A DNA stretch of 64,000 nucleotides, taken from the NCBI GenBank assembly GCA_965285935.1, contig OZ260666.1, forward strand, positions 52,266,001-52,330,000, given 5' to 3'. Below, piece after piece: positions 12,319 through 53,540 of this stretch (position 1 is the first letter of the stretch; each line of letters begins with the position of its first letter). A program made the translations under genes and the position numbers. This stretch comes from Ophelia neglecta. Its lineage: Eukaryota. The notes under the pieces were generated by a model that saw only the letters and a program-made list of their open reading frames with translations, was not told where the DNA came from and did not search any database.

Positions 12319-13400
12319 GGCCAGGAGTTTGTATTATAACTGTAATAGTCTGGGAGGACAAGAGATGTGTATTTCATCTTGGAGAAGAGTCTGGATGGGA
12401 GGTGTACTATAACTGTGAGGGGAGTCCTGAAAGGCCAAGGGATGTGTACTATAACTGTGTGGGTACCTCTTCCAGGGACAAGGGATGTGTATTATCACTG
12501 TGAAGGGTTGCTTGGAGGGCCAAGGGGTTCATATTATAACTGTGAGGGGAGTCCCGAAGGGCCAAGGGATGTGTATTACTACTGTGTGGGCCCTCTTCCA
12601 GGGACAAGGGATGTGTATTATCACTGTGAAGGGTTGCTTGGAGGGCCAAGGGGTTCATATTATAACTGTGAGGGGAGTCCTGAAGGGCCAAGGGATGTGT
12701 ATTACTACTGTGTGGGCCCTCTTCCAGGGACAAGGGATGTGTATTATCACTGTGAAGGGTTGCTTGGAGGGCCAAGGGGTTCATATTATAACTGTGAGGG
12801 GAGTCCCGAAGGGCCAAGGGATGTGTATTACTACTGTGTAGGCCCTCTTCCAGGGACAAGGGATGTGTATTATCACTGTGAAGGGTTGCTTGGAGGGCCA
12901 AGGGGTTCATATTATAACTGTGAGGGGAGTCCCGAAGGGCCAAGGGATGTGTATTACTACTGTGTGGGCCCTCTTCCAGGGACAAGGGATGTGTATTATC
13001 ACTGTGAAGGGTTGCTTGGAGGGCCAAGGGGTTCATATTATAACTGTGAGGGGAGTCCCGAAGGGCCAAGGGATGTGTATTACTACTGTGTGGGCCCTCT
13101 TCCAGGGACAAGGGATGTGTATTATCACTGTGAAGGGTTGCTTGGAGGGCCAAGGGGTTCATATTATAACTGTGAGGGGAGTCCCGAGAGGTCAAGGGAT
13201 GTGTATTACTACTGTGAGGGGGGTCTGGGAAAGAGTTACAGGGCATGAATTGTAAATTTGAGGTGATTCTGGGAGGGCTAAGGGGGTGTGTATTATAACT
13301 GTAAGGAGGTTTTAGGAGGGACAAGGACCTGTATTATAACTATGAGGAGATTCTGGCTGGACAAGGAGTGTGCATTATAACTGTGAGGTGGTTCTGGGCA
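12319..13400. repeat. Minisatellite of 42-bp monomers, organised centrally as a 126-bp (3x42) higher-order repeat
   Basis: Three subunits (gggccaagggatgtgtattactactgtgtgggccctcttcca / gggacaagggatgtgtattatcactgtgaagggttgcttgga / gggccaaggggttcatattataactgtgaggggagtcccgaa) repeated about 5.7 times almost perfectly; degenerate monomers on both flanks. Confidence 0.95.
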
Positions 13401-14094: not shown

Positions 14095-16920
14095 TGGATG
14101 TATCTTCCAGGAGTTTGTATCCCCCAGGAGTATGTATCCACCAGGAGTATGTAACCTCAGGAGTATGTACCCTCCATGAGTATGTATCCACCAGGAGTAT
14201 GTACCCTCAGGAGTATGTATCCAGCAGAAGTATGTACCCTCAGGAGTATGTATCCTCCATGAGTATGTACCCTCAGGAGTATGTATCCTCCAGGAGTATG
14301 TACCCCCAGGAGTATGTATCCTCCAGGAGTATGTATCCCCCAGGAGTATGTATCCTCCAGGAGTATGTATCCTCAGGAGTATGTATCCTCAGGAGTATGT
14401 ATCCTCCAGGAGTATGTACCCCCAGGAGTATGTATCCTCCAGGAGTATGTATCCCCCAGGAGTATGTATCCTCCAGGAGTATGTACCCCCAGGAGTATGT
14501 ATCCTCAGGAGTATGTATCCACCAGTAGTATGTACCCTCAGGAGTATGTTTATGTATCCTCCAGGAGTATGTTCCCTAAAGAGTATGTTTCCTCCAGGAG
14601 TATGTTTATGTATCCTCCAGGAGTATGTACCCTCAGGAGTATGTACCCCCAGGAGTATGTACCCTCAGGAGTATGTATCCTCCAGGAGTATGTACCCTCA
14701 GGAGTATGTACCCCCAGGAGTATGTACCCTCAGGAGTATGTATCCTCCAGGAGTATGTACCCCCAGGAGTATGTACCCTCAGGAGTATGTACCCTCAGGA
14801 GTATGTACCCCCAGGAGTATGTACCCCCAGGAGTATGTATCCTCCAGGAGTATGTATCCCCCAGGAGTATGTATCCTCCAGGAGTATGTACCCCCAGGAG
14901 TATGTATCCTCAGGAGTATGTATCCACCAGTAGTATGTACCCTCAGGAGTATGTACCCCCAGGAGTATGTATCCTCAGGAGTATGTATCCACCAGTAGTA
15001 TGTACCCTCAGGAGTATGTATCCTCCAGGAGTATGTATCCTCCAGGAGTATGTATCCTCAGGAGTATGTATCCACCAGTAGTATGTACCCTCAGGAGTAT
15101 GTTTATGTATCCTCCAGGAGTATGTACCCTCAGGAGTATGTACCCCCAGGAGTATGTATCCTCCATGAGTATGTACCCTCAGGAGTATGTATCCTCCAGG
15201 AGTATGTACCCCCAGGAGTATGTATCCTCCAGGAGTATGTATCCCCCAGGAGTATGTATCCTCCAGGAGTATGTATCCTCAGGAGTATGTATCCTCAGGA
15301 GTATGTATCCTCCAGGAGTATGTACCCCCAGGAGTATGTATCCTCCAGGAGTATGTATCCCCCAGGAGTATGTATCCTCCAGGAGTATGTACCCCCAGGA
15401 GTATGTATCCTCAGGAGTATGTATCCACCAGTAGTATGTACCCTCAGGAGTATGTTTATGTATCCTTCAGGAGTATGTTCCCTAAAGAGTATGTTTCCTC
15501 CAGGAGTATGTTTATGTATCCTCCAGGAGTATGTACCCTCAGGAGTATGTACCCCCAGGAGTATGTACCCCCAGGAGTATGTACCCTCAAGAGTATGTAT
15601 CCTCCAGGAGTATGTACCCCCAGGAGTATGTATCCTCCAGGAGTATGTATCCTCCAGGAGTATGTACCCCCAGGAGTATGTATCCTCAGGAGTATGTATC
15701 CACCAGTAGTATGTACCCTCAGGAGTATGTACCCCCAGGAGTATGTACCCTCAGGAGTATGTATCCTCCAGGAGTATGTATCCCCCAGGAGTATGTATCC
15801 TCCAGGAGTATGTACCCCCAGGAGTATGTATCCTCAGGAGTATGTATCCACCAGTAGTATGTACCCTCAGGAGTATGTTTATGTATCCTCCAGGAGTATG
15901 TTCCCTAAAGAGTATGTTTCCTCCAGGAGTATGTTTATGTATCCTCCAGGAGTATGTACCCTCAGGAGTATGTACCCCCAGGAGTATGTACCCTCAGGAG
16001 TATGTATCCTCCAGGAGTATGTATCCTCCAGGAGTATGTACCCCCAGGAGTATGTATCCTCCAGGAGTATGTTTATGTATCCTCCAGGAGTATGTTCCCT
16101 AAAGAGTATGTTTCCTCCAGGAGTATGTTTATGTATCCTCCAGGAGTATGTACCCTCAGGAGTATGTACCCCCAGGAGTATGTACCCTCAGGAGTATGTA
16201 TCCTCCAGGAGTATGTATCCCCCAGGAGTATGTACCCCCAGGAGTATGTACCCTCAGGAGTATGTATCCTCCAGGAGTATGTATCCCCCAGGAGTATGTA
16301 TCCTCCAGGAGTATGTACCCCCAGGAGTATGTATCCTCCAGGAGTATGTACCCTCAGGAGTATGTATCCTCCAGGAGTATGTACCCCCAGGAGTATGTAT
16401 CCTCCAGGAGTATGTACCCCCAGGAGTATGTATCCTCCAGGAGTATGTACCCTCAGGAGTATGTATCCTCCAGGAGTATGTACCCCCAGGAGTATGTATC
16501 ATCCAGGAGTATGTTTATGTATCCTCCAGGAGTATGTACCCTCAGGAGTATGTATCCTCCAGGAGTATGTTTATGTATCCTCCAGGAGTATGTACCCTCA
16601 GGAGTATGTACCCCCAGGAGTATGTACCCCCAGGAGTATGTATCCTCCAGGAGTATGTATCCTCCAGGAGTATGTACCCCCAGGAGTATTTACCCTCAGA
16701 AGTATGTACCCTCAGGAGTATGTATCCTCCAGGAGTATGTACCCCCAGGAGTATGTATCCTCCAGGAGTATGTACCCCCAGGAGTATGTATCCTCCAGGA
16801 GTATGTACCCCCAGGAGTATGTATCCTCCAGGAGTATGTACCCCCAGGAGTATGTACCCCCAGGAGTATGTATCCTCCAGGAGTATGTACCCTCAGGAGT
16901 ATGTACCCTCAGGAGTATTT
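14095..16920. repeat. About 2.8 kb satellite of mixed 16/17-bp units CAGGAGTATGTA(CCCC/CCCT/TCCT/TCCTC/TCCCC)
   Basis: Direct reading; variant blocks recur (e.g. a 906-bp offset between 14281 and 15187). Confidence 0.97.
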
Positions 16921-19954: not shown

Positions 19955-20955
19955 GGATGCCTAGAGCAGTGGCCTTCCCATGGAGAGCCAAATCACTGGT
20001 TAGCAGACTCCAGGAGCAAATGGCCTTTCCATGGAGAGCCAAATCACTGGTTAGCAGACTCCAGGAGCAAATGGCCTTTCCATGGAGAGCCAAGTCACTG
20101 CAGTGCAGACTACTGGAACAGTGGCCTTCCCATGAAGAACCAAGCCACTGGACTGCTGCCTACTGGAACAGTGGCCTTCCCATGCAGAGCAAAGTCACTC
20201 AACTGGAGACCCCTGGAGCAGTGGCCTTCCCATGAAGAGCCAAGCCACTGGACTGCAGACCCCTGGAGCAGTAGCTAACCTGTGAAGAGCCAAGCCACCT
20301 GAAAAGCCAAGCCATCATACAGCAGACCCTAGGAGCAGGGGCCTCCCATGGGTGGCCAAGCCCCTTCCCATGGATAGCCAATGAGTCACTGGACAACATA
20401 CTCCTGGAGTAGTGGCCTTCCGATGGAGAGCCAAGCCACTGGACAGCAGAATCCTAGAGAGGCAAGCCACTGGCCAGCAGATTCCTCCAACTGTAGTCTG
20501 CCCATGGGGAGTAAAGCCACGGGATAGCAGACTCCAGGAGCAGTGGCCTTGCCATGGAGAGCCAAGCCACTGGCCAGCAGATTCCTCCAACTGTAGTCTG
20601 CCCATGGGGAGTAAAGCCACTGGCCAGCAGACCCCAGGAGCAGTGGCCTTGCCATGGGGAGCCAAGCCACTGGCCAGCAGACTCCAGGAGCAGTGGCCTT
20701 GCCATGGAGAGCCAAGCCACTGGCCAGCAGACTCCAGGAGCAGTGGCCTTGCCATGGGGAGCCAAGCCACTGGCCAGCAGACTCCAGGAGCAGTGGCCTT
20801 GCCATGGAGAGCCAAGCCACTGGCCAGCAGACTCCAGGAGCAGTGGCCTTGCCATGGAGTAGTGGCCTTGCAATGGGGAGCCAAGCCACTGGCCAGCAGA
20901 CTCCAGGAGCAGTGGCCTTGCCATAGAGAGCCAACCCACTGGCCAGCAGATTCCT
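19955..20955. repeat. 50-bp minisatellite (ggagagccaagccactggccagcagactccaggagcagtggccttgccat)
   Basis: About 19 copies; degenerate 51-bp-like copies on the left, homogeneous on the right. Confidence 0.95.
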
Positions 20956-23296: not shown

Positions 23297-23488
23297 AACA
23301 CAATAACCAATGCAGACAAGTTGTTAGTGGCTGCTGAGGAACTGGCCCAGACTGGAGAATGCGACCCACAGGAGATCTACAGCGAGGCTCACCAGCTGGA
23401 GGAGAGAATGAACAGCTTCATCGCTCGAGTCGAACGCAGGCGCAATCTCCTGGACATGTCTGTCGCCTTTTACACTCACACTAAAGAG
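23297..23488 (+). CDS. TRIO: Trio exon A (spectrin repeat): NTITNADKLLVAAEELAQTGECDPQE...LLDMSVAFYTHTKE
   Basis: tttcag|AAC ... GAG|gttagt; 192 nt, phase 0/0. The donor is the first of 16 tandem copies. Confidence 0.92.
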
Positions 23489-24350
23489 GTTAGTAGTATC
23501 AATCTCCTGGACATGTCTGACGCCTTTAACACTCACACTAAAGAGGTTGGTAGTATCAATCTCCTGGACATGTCTGTCGCTTTTTACACTCACACTAAAG
23601 AGGTTAGTAGTATCAATCTCCTGGACATGTCTGACGCCTTTTACACTCACACTAAAGAGGTTAGTAGTATCAATCTCCTGGACATGTCTGACGCCTTTTA
23701 CACTCACACTAAAGAGGTTAGTAGTATTAATCTCCTGGACATGTCTGACGCCTTTTACACTCACACTAAAGAGGTTAGTAGTATCAATCTCCTGGACATG
23801 TCTGTTGCATTTTACACTCACACTAAAGAGGTTAGTAGTATCAATCTCCTGGACATGTCTGACGCCTTTAACACTCACACTAAAGAGGTTAGTAGTATCA
23901 ATCTCCTGGACATGTCTGACGCCTTTTACACTCACACTAAAGAGGTTAGTAGTATCAATCTCCTGGACATGTCTGACGCCTTTTACACTCACACTAAAGA
24001 GGTTAGTAGTATCAATCTCCTGGACATGTCTGACGCCTTTAACACTCACACTAAAGAGGTTAGTAGTATCAATCTCCTGGACATGTCTGACGCCTTTAAC
24101 ACTCACACTAAAGAGGTTAGTAGTATCAATCTCCTGGACATGTCTGACGCCTTTAACACTCACACTAAAGAGGTTAGTAGTATCAATCTCCTGGACATGT
24201 CTGACGCCTTTAACACTCACACTAAAGAGGTTAGTAGTATCAATCTCCTGGACATGTCTGACGCCTTTTACACTCACACTAAAGAGGTTAGTAGTATCAA
24301 TCTCCTGGACATGTCTGACGCCTTTAACACTCACACTAAAGAGGTGGGTA
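23443..24350 (+). repeat. 57-bp tandem array spanning the exon A 3' end and donor site (16 donor copies)
   Basis: Unit caatctcctggacatgtctgacgccttttacactcacactaaagag|gttagtagtat; GT at 23489+57n up to 24344. Confidence 0.97.
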
Positions 24351-38364: not shown

Positions 38365-38526
38365 TTGTCTAACCAGTTGGAGCTGTGGGCTGAGGAGTTA
38401 CAGCATGTAGAGCTGAGTACAGACGTGGGGAAAGCCGAGCAGTTCTTAGGCATGCACAATGACAGTGTTCTTCACATGCAGAACTGTGTCTTTGACTTAT
38501 TACAAAGGGGGCAGGACCTCTCTACG
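38365..38526 (+). CDS. TRIO: Trio exon E (spectrin): LSNQLELWAEELQ...FDLLQRGQDLST
   Basis: ctctcag|TTG ... ACG|gtaagt; 162 nt, phase 0/0. Confidence 0.92.
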
Positions 38527-38958
38527 GTAAGTTTGTCTACTAAAGTCACAGGAACTCTGTAGGGTAAGTTGTCTAAAGGGGCAGGACCTCTCTACTGTGG
38601 GTTGTCTAAAGGGGCAGGACCTCTCTACTGTGGGTTGTCTAAAGGGGCAGGACCTCTCTACTGTGGGTTGTCTAAAGGGGCAGGACCTCTCTACTGTAGG
38701 TTGTCTTAAGGGGCAGGACCTCTCTACTGTGGGTTGTCTAAAGGAGGCAGGACCTCTCTACCGTAGGTTGTCTAAAGGGGCAGGACCTCTCTACTGTGGG
38801 TTGTCTAAAGGGGCAGGACCTCTCTACTGTGGGTTGTCTAGAGGGGCCAGGACTTCTCTACTGTAGGTTGTCTAGAGGGGCCAGGACATCTCTACTGTAG
38901 GTTGTCTAGAGGGGACAGGACTTCTCTACTGTAGGTTGTCTAAAGGGGGCAGGACCTC
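38503..38958 (+). repeat. 33-bp tandem array spanning the exon E 3' end and donor site
   Basis: Unit aaaggggcaggacctctctact|gtgggttgtct versus the true junction aaagggggcaggacctctctacg|gtaagtttgtct; about 12 copies. Confidence 0.93.
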
Positions 38959-40134
38959 TAACATCTGTACACAGTTGACTTAGTTATGTGGCATTATTGA
39001 GCTGTTCTAGTTTAAGAAGTCTAACTGTTCATTCATATTTCTTGTTTTTTTTTTTTTTGCTACTAATAAGCCTATCTATAATTAACTCTTCAAGTATTAT
39101 TACTCCATCAAATGTCAGTATAAGACAGTTTTCTTGCATTGAAACAGTCTTGTATCTGGAGCGTTCTTGGCTTTTTAGTCAGCATGTACTCAAGTTGATC
39201 GAGCAGACGAGAGAAATGTGCTAATTTTGTCATGGCCTTGGTATGAAGCATGCCAGAGTACAGGTACATCAAGGCTTCGAGATGTGCTGATGGAGAGAAT
39301 GGCCTGCTGAACATCATTATCAAGTGTGGGTTATTACCACACAAGTGTCTTCCAAGTGCCAATGATGTACACTGTACTGTCATTAAGGGGCCAGGAGTGA
39401 TCTTCCCTCCTTCTGACTGGTCTCCTGACTGGGGATTGACCACACCTCTGATGTGGTGTAATAAAAGATGGCTGTCATTTAGCCATATACTCAGGGCATG
39501 ATCTGTGACCAATACATTCATAGATGATCATTGACATGCAAAACACCCATCCCATCAAACCATTAGGTGGCCCTTAGTGTAAAGTAGGCCCATGTCTAAG
39601 TTCATACTCATTTCACAGTTCATGTATTATAGATTTGACTTGTCTACAGCCCAGTCCATGGGCCAGGGGCCGGGCGAGTGGGGAGGAGAGAGCTCTGCCC
39701 TGATGGTGATCTGATATTGATCTGGACACAGATCGATACTCATTGTGGATGGTTTACATGTCAGATGTGGCCAGGTGTGGCAGACGTGTCCCGTAAACAA
39801 CCTTTACAACTTCACTGGGCATTTAATGACCCTCCATATTGTGTTTTACACAGTAGGGTAATGTGTTGGCTATAAATTAAATCAACCTTTGTAGAGGGAT
39901 GCTTGACATGACGTCTGTCCATAAAACCTTGGCCGGATAAATTACAAAGGCTATTTACGTTTTATATATTGATAGATATTCCATTATTGCTGGCACAATA
40001 TTAATGATAATATGAAATATTGCCAGTGCTTTTTAAATTGATGGTTATAGCCAGAATGAATGTATTTGCTATGATTTGCACTAGATGACCTAGCCTGTCT
40101 TGGTGGATTTGTGGGCCCTGCGAATCACACACTG

Positions 40135-41689
40135 TGTTTACTATTGTAGTTATTTGAGCAGTTGGGTGTACAGTTGATGACATATTGATGTTTACTATTG
40201 TAGTTATTTGAGCAGTCGGGTGTTCAGTTGATGACATATTGTTGTTTACTATTGTAGTTATTTGAGAAGTCGGGTGTACATTTGATGACATATTGTTGTT
40301 TACTATTGTAGTTATTTGAGCAGTCGGGTGTACAGTTGATGACATATTGTTGTTTACTATTGTAGTTATTTGAGCAGTCGGGTGTACAGTTGATGACATA
40401 TTGATGTTTACTATTGTAGTTATTTGAGCGGTCGGGTGAACAGTTTATGACATATTTTTGTTCACTATTGTAGTTATTTGAGAAGTCGGGTGTTCAGTTG
40501 ATGACATATTGTTGTTTACTATTGTAGTTATTTGAGCAGTCGGGTGTTCAGTTGATGACATATTGTTGTTTTCTATTGTAGTTATTTGAGCAGTCGGGTG
40601 TACAGTTGATGACATATTGTTGTTTACTATTGTAGTTATTTGAGCAGTCGGGTGTACAGTTGATGACATATTGATGTTTACTATTGTAGTTATTTGAGCA
40701 GTCGGGTGTACAGTTGATGACATATTGATGTTTACTATTGTAGTTATTTGAGCAGTTGGGTGTACAGTTGATGACCTATTGATGTTTACTTTTGTAGTTA
40801 TTTGAGCAGTCGGGTGTTCAGTTGATGACATATTGTTGTTTTCTATTGTAGTTATTTGAGCAGTCGGGTGTACAGTTGATGACATATTGTTGTTTACTAT
40901 TGTAGTTATTTGAGCAGTCGGGTGTACAGTTGATGACATATTGATGTTTACTATTGTAGTTATTTGAGCAGTCGGGTGTACAGTTGATGACATTGATGTT
41001 TACTATTGTAGTTATTTGAGCAGTCGGGTGTTCAGTTGATGACCTATTAATGTTTACTATTGTAGTTATATGAGCAGTCGGGTGTACAGTTGATGACATA
41101 TTGTTGTTTACTATTGTAGTTATTTGAGAAGTTGGGTGTTCAGTTGATGACATATTGATGTTTACTATTGTAGTTATTTGTGAAGTCGGTCGTTCAGTTG
41201 ATGACATATTGATGTTTACTATTGTAGTTATTTGAACAGTCGGGTGTACAGTTGATGACATATTGATGTTTACTATTGTAGTTATTTGAGCAGTCGGGTG
41301 TTCAGTTGATGACCTATTGATGTTTACTATTGTAGTTATATGAGCGGTCAGGTGTACAGTTGATGACATATTGTTGTTTACTATTGTAGTTATATGAGCA
41401 GTCGGGTGTACAGTTGATGACATATTGATGTTTACTATTGTAGTTATTTGAGCAGTCGGGTGTACAGTTGATGACATATTGATGTTTACTATTGTAGTTA
41501 TTTGAGCAGTCGGGTGTTCAGTTGATGACCTATTAATGTTTACTATTGTAGTTATATGAGCAGTCGGGTGTACAGTTGATGACATATTGTTGTTTACTAT
41601 TGTAGTTATTTGAGCAGTCGGGTGTACAGTTGATGACCTATTGATATTTACTATTGTAGTTATTTGAGCAGTCGGGTGTACAGTTGATG
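40135..41689 (+). repeat. 54-bp tandem array spanning the acceptor site and exon F 5' end (about 29 acceptor copies)
   Basis: Unit acatattgatgtttactattgtag|ttatttgagcagtcgggtgtacagttgatg; first AG at 40148-40149, last at 41658-41659; one 2-bp deletion near 40990. Confidence 0.97.
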
Positions 41690-41842
41690 GCTGATTCTCA
41701 GTATGATGCTCAGACTCGTATCCAGGCTCTGCTTGAGTTCTTACATGAAAGGGAAATGGACCTGGAGGATCTCGCCGAACAAAAACGCATCAAACTTGAC
41801 CAGTGCGTCCAGCTCAGACACTTTGAGGCTGAGGCCAGACAG
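41660..41842 (+). CDS. TRIO: Trio exon F (spectrin): LFEQSGVQLMADSQYDAQTRIQALLEFLHE...QLRHFEAEARQ
   Basis: tattgtag|TTA ... CAG|gtatga; 183 nt, phase 0/0. The acceptor is the last copy of a 54-bp array. This frame is not in the ORF track. Confidence 0.9.
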
Positions 41843-42795: not shown

Positions 42796-42878
42796 AAAAC
42801 CCACCAAGCTGCTGTGCAGGCCACACAAAAAGCTGAATTGATGATACAGAATAACCACTACAATAGTGAATTAGTCAG
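42796..42878 (+). CDS. TRIO: Trio exon H: KTHQAAVQATQKAELMIQNNHYNSELV(R)
   Basis: ctttgcag|AAA ... AG|gtaata; 83 nt, phase 0/2. Confidence 0.92.
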
Positions 42879-43165
42879 GTAATAAAACCATTACAATAGT
42901 GAATTAGTCAGGTGAATAAATCCACTACAATAGTGAATTGGTCAGGTCAGTAACCGCTACAGTGGTGAATTAGTTGGGAAAATAACCACTACAATAATAA
43001 ATTTGTCCTGAATAAGTCAGGTTAATAACCACTACAAAATTGAATTCCTGACTGATACTTTGGTGATTTAGTCATGGAAACAGCTATTATAATAGTGAAT
43101 GTGTATGGTAAACAACCACTACAATAGTGAATTTACTCCACAACCACTAGTTCATTAGTGAATGT
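42852..43165 (+). repeat. Decayed 33-34 bp array spanning the exon H 3' end and donor site
   Basis: aaccactacaatagtgaattagtcag|gtaataa followed by about 8-9 increasingly diverged copies. Confidence 0.85.
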
Positions 43166-53375: not shown

Positions 53376-53540
53376 ATGGCAGGGGGATACACCCCCTCGA
53401 TCTATACAGACAAGACCTACTCGGCCAGTCTTTATGCCATGTGTGCGGTGGCCATACCAGAAGACTTTGATGACATTCCCTTGCCTTCTCGCAGTAAGAG
53501 TATGGAAGACTTGAGTGAGGAAGGCGGCTCCCAGAATAGG
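53376..53540 (+). CDS. Candidate alternative first coding exon of a short Trio isoform (MAGGYTPSIY...SMEDLSEEGGSQNR)
   Basis: ACAATGG Kozak; in-frame upstream TGA at 53358; 55 codons ending AGG|gtagga in phase 0, matching exon M; coding-like composition. Confidence 0.5.

Follow-up and report, generated by a model that had tools for sequence, protein, structure and literature searches.

Tandem repeats that carry an exon-intron boundary were described in amphioxus as mirages, affecting the globin genes BflGb6 and BflGb9, Adh3, troponin C and PGBD5, and in the accessible parts of the two reports RT-PCR suggested that splicing was undisturbed (PMC3087553, PMC3902484). The 37-bp VNTR in intron 7 of human F7 offers five to nine identical donors, of which only the first, authentic one is used according to the available excerpts of the study, and this repeat served as a natural model of splice-site choice (PMC1557585); classic experiments with two-copy duplications gave conflicting results, as summarised in the same excerpts (PMC1557585). 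A VNTR beside the donor of human ABCA7 intron 18 yields stop-containing transcripts and is disease-associated, and in the RNA set of that study no correlation could be drawn between splicing and the length of the repeat (PMC13747324). A search of open-access text returned no paper in which a natural acceptor array was used to isolate the effect of position, and nothing relevant on junction repeats, in molluscs or in general, was found by title in the literature.

The window analysed here, a stretch of 64,000 nucleotides of the Ophelia neglecta genome, contains an acceptor array in the Trio gene (Table 1). This array is real, and it is a mirage, that is, of a type already named in lancelets and published. 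Tandem Repeats Finder gave a period of 54, 28.8 copies and 94% matches for 40135-41689. The 29 AG-bearing units had their first AG at 40149 and their last at 41659, with a spacing of 54 nt in 27 cases and of 52 nt in one (40959 to 41011). In each unit, 24 nt from the end of the intron were followed by the first 30 nt of exon 41660-41842, as the earlier note had described, and its count of about 28 decoy acceptors upstream of the real one, each ending in a stop, was also confirmed, since 28 extra AGs were present and 28/28 of the upstream acceptors ran into a stop before donor 41842.

Table 1. Features of the Trio locus; positions refer to the window except where a separate region is named.
Feature	Positions	Strand	Description
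Acceptor mirage minisatellite	40135..41689	+	54-bp unit, 29 units, 28 of them with an extra acceptor (40149-41605)
Authentic 3' splice site module	41636..41659	+	motifs at -27/-24/-16, T-rich tract, TAG, phase 0; score 6.8; putative branch point
Trio exon F	41660..41842	+	183 nt, 61 aa, spectrin-repeat region; first 30 nt = last array unit
Trio exon E	38365..38526	+	162 nt, donor 38526; PF23323 Kalirin-like spectrin match weak, under the cut-off
Phase-0 intron	38527..41659	+	3133 nt, about 2/3 occupied by two arrays
Donor mirage of intron 38527-41659	38508..38959	+	33 bp x 13.4; 12 extra GT sites (11 weakened), each running into a stop
Donor mirage of Trio exon 23297-23488	23443..24345	+	57 bp x 15.8; 15 extra donors, in frame, stop-free
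Degenerate donor mirage of exon 42796-42878	42853..43007	+	32 bp x 4.7; a stop follows the extra sites
Degenerate donor array (38 bp, outside the window) of an upstream Trio exon	L060:4392-4559		

All four sequence-level features of a mirage were found: tandem units of minisatellite size, a unit lying across a genuine, homology-confirmed exon-intron boundary of Trio, intronic extra copies that carry splice signals and leave exon 41660-41842 open, and concerted evolution with a diverged boundary unit. The first (boundary) unit was the most diverged, with 10 mismatches as compared with 0-5 in the remaining units. We counted 19 distinct unit types; the exon part was identical to the real exon in 10 of the 28 copies, and the AG was intact in 29/29 units. 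Variation per site was 0.039 in the intron part and 0.035 in the exon part, and the variant codons of the copied exon part comprised nine non-synonymous and three synonymous ones, as expected for unselected DNA. Because 32 of the 54 columns of the unit were invariant, so that two given columns would be invariant by chance about 1/3 of the time, the never-lost AG says little and its invariance is within chance.

An assembly artefact was ruled out by the 19 unit types together with the contigs from three DNA runs (one sample, possibly the source sample), in which the unit goes on at 41689, the edge of the array. Read depth was much higher on the repeat than on the exon (X1, 665 vs 28), a rough figure in which depth is not copy number and contigs collapse repeats. 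When the 762-Mb genome was searched, no copy of exon F was found elsewhere, all 17 matches falling at the Trio locus.

Exon F matched Trio/Kalirin proteins, the best of 33 being the Trio of Haliotis rufescens with 82% identity, and tblastn located Trio exons in order over the window and the neighbouring DNA, encoding spectrin repeats, DH and PH, with a PF00621 match. When 38526 was joined to 41660, the junction aligned gap-free in 18 of the 20 spanning homologs, out of 33 examined, so that 41659 is the ancestral acceptor; it is also the only productive one, as had been claimed in the earlier note. On the predicted protein, the conserved sequence is restored by acceptor 41659 alone, and the predicted Trio coding sequence looks ordinary and unaltered by the array. 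Homology mapping also showed that positions 1-23296 of the window are part of one 26.6-kb Trio intron, in which large arrays of 42 bp (12397-13393), 16 bp x 167 (14098-16918) and 50 bp (19960-20859) occur with no exon detected at them. Further downstream, positions 53376-53540 are open for 55 codons, beginning with an ATG and ending at a donor-like GT in phase 0, within the 9.7-kb intron before exon 54311; a shorter form of Trio might start with this segment as its alternative first exon.

The stops behind the 28 upstream acceptors consisted of 15 early TGA or TAA codons, 12 TAGs of the next unit and one stop reached after a 2-nt deletion had shifted the frame, in agreement with the previous description of the stop as the TAG of the next copy, often joined by a TGA. 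The premature stop was located upstream of later junctions for 28/28 of these acceptors, as expected by chance. That all 28 copies keep the AG and end in a stop would be in line with a selected control of dose, the rheostat suggested in the earlier note, whereby the level of Trio would be tuned by the number of copies through the fraction of transcripts that contain a stop. In order to know how often such stops arise by default, we simulated 40,000 duplications across real junctions and scored whether the first extra site stays in frame and stop-free. It was kept open in 15% of the simulated duplications and failed in the other 85%. Moreover, 140/140 phase-0 TAG acceptors gave a stop with the 24 + 30 layout, since the TAG of the acceptor itself is then read in frame; the stop is thus automatic for an acceptor of this kind when the length of the unit is divisible by three. 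With these default rates the focal stops need no selection, and a design behind them is not supported. We consider a selected dose control very unlikely.

In order to compare the copies with the real site, splice-site matrices were trained on 684 acceptors and 683 donors of this genome that homology had identified in Trio, in 30 myosin stretches and in 14 dynein regions. Acceptor 41659 scored below the sample median of 8.5 and was beaten by 27 of its own 28 copies, so that strength cannot select it and position must. Branch-point-like motifs were present in every unit at -27, -24 and -16, the branch point of the last unit being predicted at -24 or -27. Going upstream from 41659, the next AG was at 41629; hence no other AG lies between 41659 and its own likely branch point. 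Scanning runs from the branch point to the AG. It follows that scanning does not favour the first copy, and the issue becomes which whole module is chosen. The array had been presented as a natural test of exon definition, and as a test bed it is a fair one, the real site being outscored by nearly all the copies, but the contrast drawn between scanning and exon definition was overstated, given the branch-point-like motifs that each unit carries. RNA structure masking the copies was not apparent, as folding was not unusual across the exon and the last three units (z = 0.42). The rest of the exon (153 nt) follows the last copy alone, which has 183 nt to a strong donor (41842, score 9.8), and position would be the selector that remains for the last acceptor.

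With one of the next three copies upstream as its acceptor, the exon would measure 237, 291 or 345 nt; among the 682 sampled exons, 17%, 8% and 4%, respectively, are at least that long. Size alone thus cannot exclude the two nearest copies. Under exon definition only the closest few would yield exons of ordinary size, and any leak should fall on these few, without scaling to 28. The copies past the third one would give exons of at least 399 nt, in a sample where only 4% reach 345 nt, which makes scaling with copy number unlikely and argues further against dose control. A leak without selection, in which a measurable part of the splicing goes to the nearest copies, their products are destroyed by nonsense-mediated decay and Trio is slightly lowered in alleles that carry the array, as a mild load rather than as a control, finds some support in the copies that score equal to or above the real site, in the branch-point-like motif of each unit and in the normal exon sizes given by the two nearest copies. 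The ABCA7 repeat is a precedent for it, and by analogy speaks against a silent by-product, as it does yield stop-containing transcripts (PMC13747324); the conflicting results of the two-copy duplication experiments also weigh against a silent by-product. On the other hand, both the amphioxus mirages and the repeat of F7 have been described as silent, which by analogy would favour a by-product, and strong leakage should favour variants that destroy the AG, which were found in 0/29 units, although this is a weak test. We regard such a leak as unlikely.

The AG was followed by TT in every unit and never by GT, and a recursive splice site was ruled out, the AG not being directly before a GT. A coding repeat or micro-exon array was rejected as well, given the stops in the exon frame, the mostly non-synonymous variants and the lack of a good internal donor. 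For the amphioxus mirages an intron-gain model has been drawn, as seen in the accessible part of that report (PMC3087553), and by the same token the array might be raw material for new exons or introns, with a unit spliced in as a micro-exon by means of an array-internal donor. One unit does contain an internal donor scoring 6.6, at 41351, but it sits 16 nt past its AG and its use would cause a frameshift; no more than three donors of the array score above 5, and the acceptor has no adjoining GT. This possibility is extremely remote.

The donor of intron 38527-41659 had also been noted as amplified. This was correct as regards the repeat itself (Table 1), but a strong site was kept in the first copy only, which scored 9.5 vs 10.0, the other 11 scoring 4.4-5.2. 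The extra donors at 23443-24345, spaced as 23488 + 57n, were as strong as the real donor, with 19 aa per unit, and the use of any of them would add 19 residues per unit to the spectrin repeat. As these donors are in frame and stop-free, leakage there would be visible without blocking decay; that one Trio donor array is wholly stop-free is a further point against dose control. Pfam matches on the translation of this array were repeat artefacts, with zero passing stretches.

The frequency of junction arrays was evaluated in 45 regions from three gene families (Trio, myosin and dynein), for which the exon set is incomplete. Trio had 30 arrays of at least three copies, five of them on junctions and 25/30 intronic, touching no exon. 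Over the 45 regions, 13/86 arrays spanned a detected junction vs 3.5 expected (P = 7e-5; one of the 13 corresponds to a weak donor call). The five Trio junction arrays and this excess are what dose control could still appeal to. However, the excess fell to 8/56 vs 2.9 (P = 0.01) without Trio, the gene chosen for the finding, and to 4/31 vs 1.9 (P = 0.12) when one repeat-rich dynein gene was also removed, which weighs against that proposal. At the level of positions there was no excess when any single copy was counted (17/1297 junctions vs 143/10928 intronic points, P = 1.0); when two outward copies were required, the figures were 15/1296 vs 64/12,920 (P = 0.005), and 9/1211 vs 56/12,070 (P = 0.19) without Trio. 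Copies at junctions were directed into the intron, 17 being outward vs 1 inward, and 15 vs 0 in the two-copy test. The first copy was open in two to three of the 13 junction arrays, as compared with about two expected by chance (15%); this shows no stop bias and also counts against dose control. By eye, 7/13 further arrays lay on exon edges missed by the automatic calls, and these were kept outside the tests. Junction arrays thus affect about 1% of junctions, cluster in repeat-rich genes and may be in modest excess.

Several of the sampled regions deserve mention in their own right. A minisatellite-rich dynein heavy-chain region (L126-L129, G000:C1:7902001-7942000, minus strand) had at least five exon-edge arrays, on donors and acceptors. 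Another dynein gene (L137:1556-2362, G000:C5, minus strand) had an acceptor array of 64 bp x 12.6 in which every third extra acceptor was open and in frame. In a myosin gene (L042:4786-5232, G000:C8, minus strand) the acceptor array was of 66 bp x 6.8, its nearest extra acceptor being open and in frame and the farther ones frame-shifted by one 67-bp unit. A dynein heavy chain with an uninterrupted frame of 2953 codons (L079/L082-L083, G000:C1:29.53 Mb) and a myosin with an intron-free head domain (L009, G000:C8:42.86 Mb) were found too, both with intron-rich paralogs; intron loss or retrocopies are possible for these two genes.

It is our view that the acceptor array, a minisatellite made of a tandem-duplicated Trio intron-exon boundary, is probably a tolerated by-product that is spliced past by means of the last, original acceptor. 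A single 54-bp duplication across the acceptor may have grown by unequal exchange or slippage, and turnover would have homogenised the array; arrays like this one would persist only where the copies spread into the intron. The advantage of the last acceptor would be its position, with the full exon behind it and nearest to the strong donor 41842. A leak, if any, would mostly reach the one to three closest copies, and nonsense-mediated decay would probably clear its products. From these considerations we infer that 41659 would be the sole acceptor used in splicing. Pure neutrality leaves the junction excess (13/86 vs 3.5) unexplained. One could suppose, at the other extreme, that exon-edge minisatellites arise or persist in this genome two to four times above chance and that some of them are read, with the acceptor array leaking to its nearest copies, so that the dose of Trio is lowered according to the allele, and the 23443-24345 array adding 19-residue units to a spectrin repeat. 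We find this quite improbable; if true, exon-edge repeats would form a heritable, length-variable layer of splicing control.

The Trio array is most likely one more clean mirage. Its value is that of a reagent, as it provides 29 near-identical 3' splice-site modules of which the productive one is nearly the weakest, and so isolates the effect of position; the F7 repeat, according to the available excerpts, gave the corresponding test for donors. Should leakage be found to track array length, exon-edge repeats would contribute to variation in expression among invertebrates whose genomes are rich in repeats.

As far as the accessible texts describe these systems, the closest likeness is to BflGb6 of amphioxus, also an acceptor array with intron end and exon start in tandem (PMC3087553), although the Trio array has 29 copies vs 3-6. 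Like the amphioxus mirages in general, it retains the splice dinucleotides, has a unit (54 bp) inside the reported range of 10-160 bp and shows a less homogenised boundary unit, the boundary exclusion of PMC3087553; both acceptor and donor mirages are present in amphioxus and in this genome. In contrast to those mirages, the Trio array belongs to a non-chordate host, has both ends of one intron amplified and is known here from one assembly. ABCA7 shares with it a repeat adjacent to a splice site and premature stops on use, and is a precedent for a length-linked effect, but that repeat is on the donor side and disease-associated, while the Trio array is known here from DNA alone. The F7 repeat resembles it in having identical functional splice sites in tandem, and in F7 the site by the intact exon wins through position. 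The difference is that F7 repeats the donor, whereas in Trio the acceptor is repeated together with the branch-point region, so that this array probes the choice of the 3' site.
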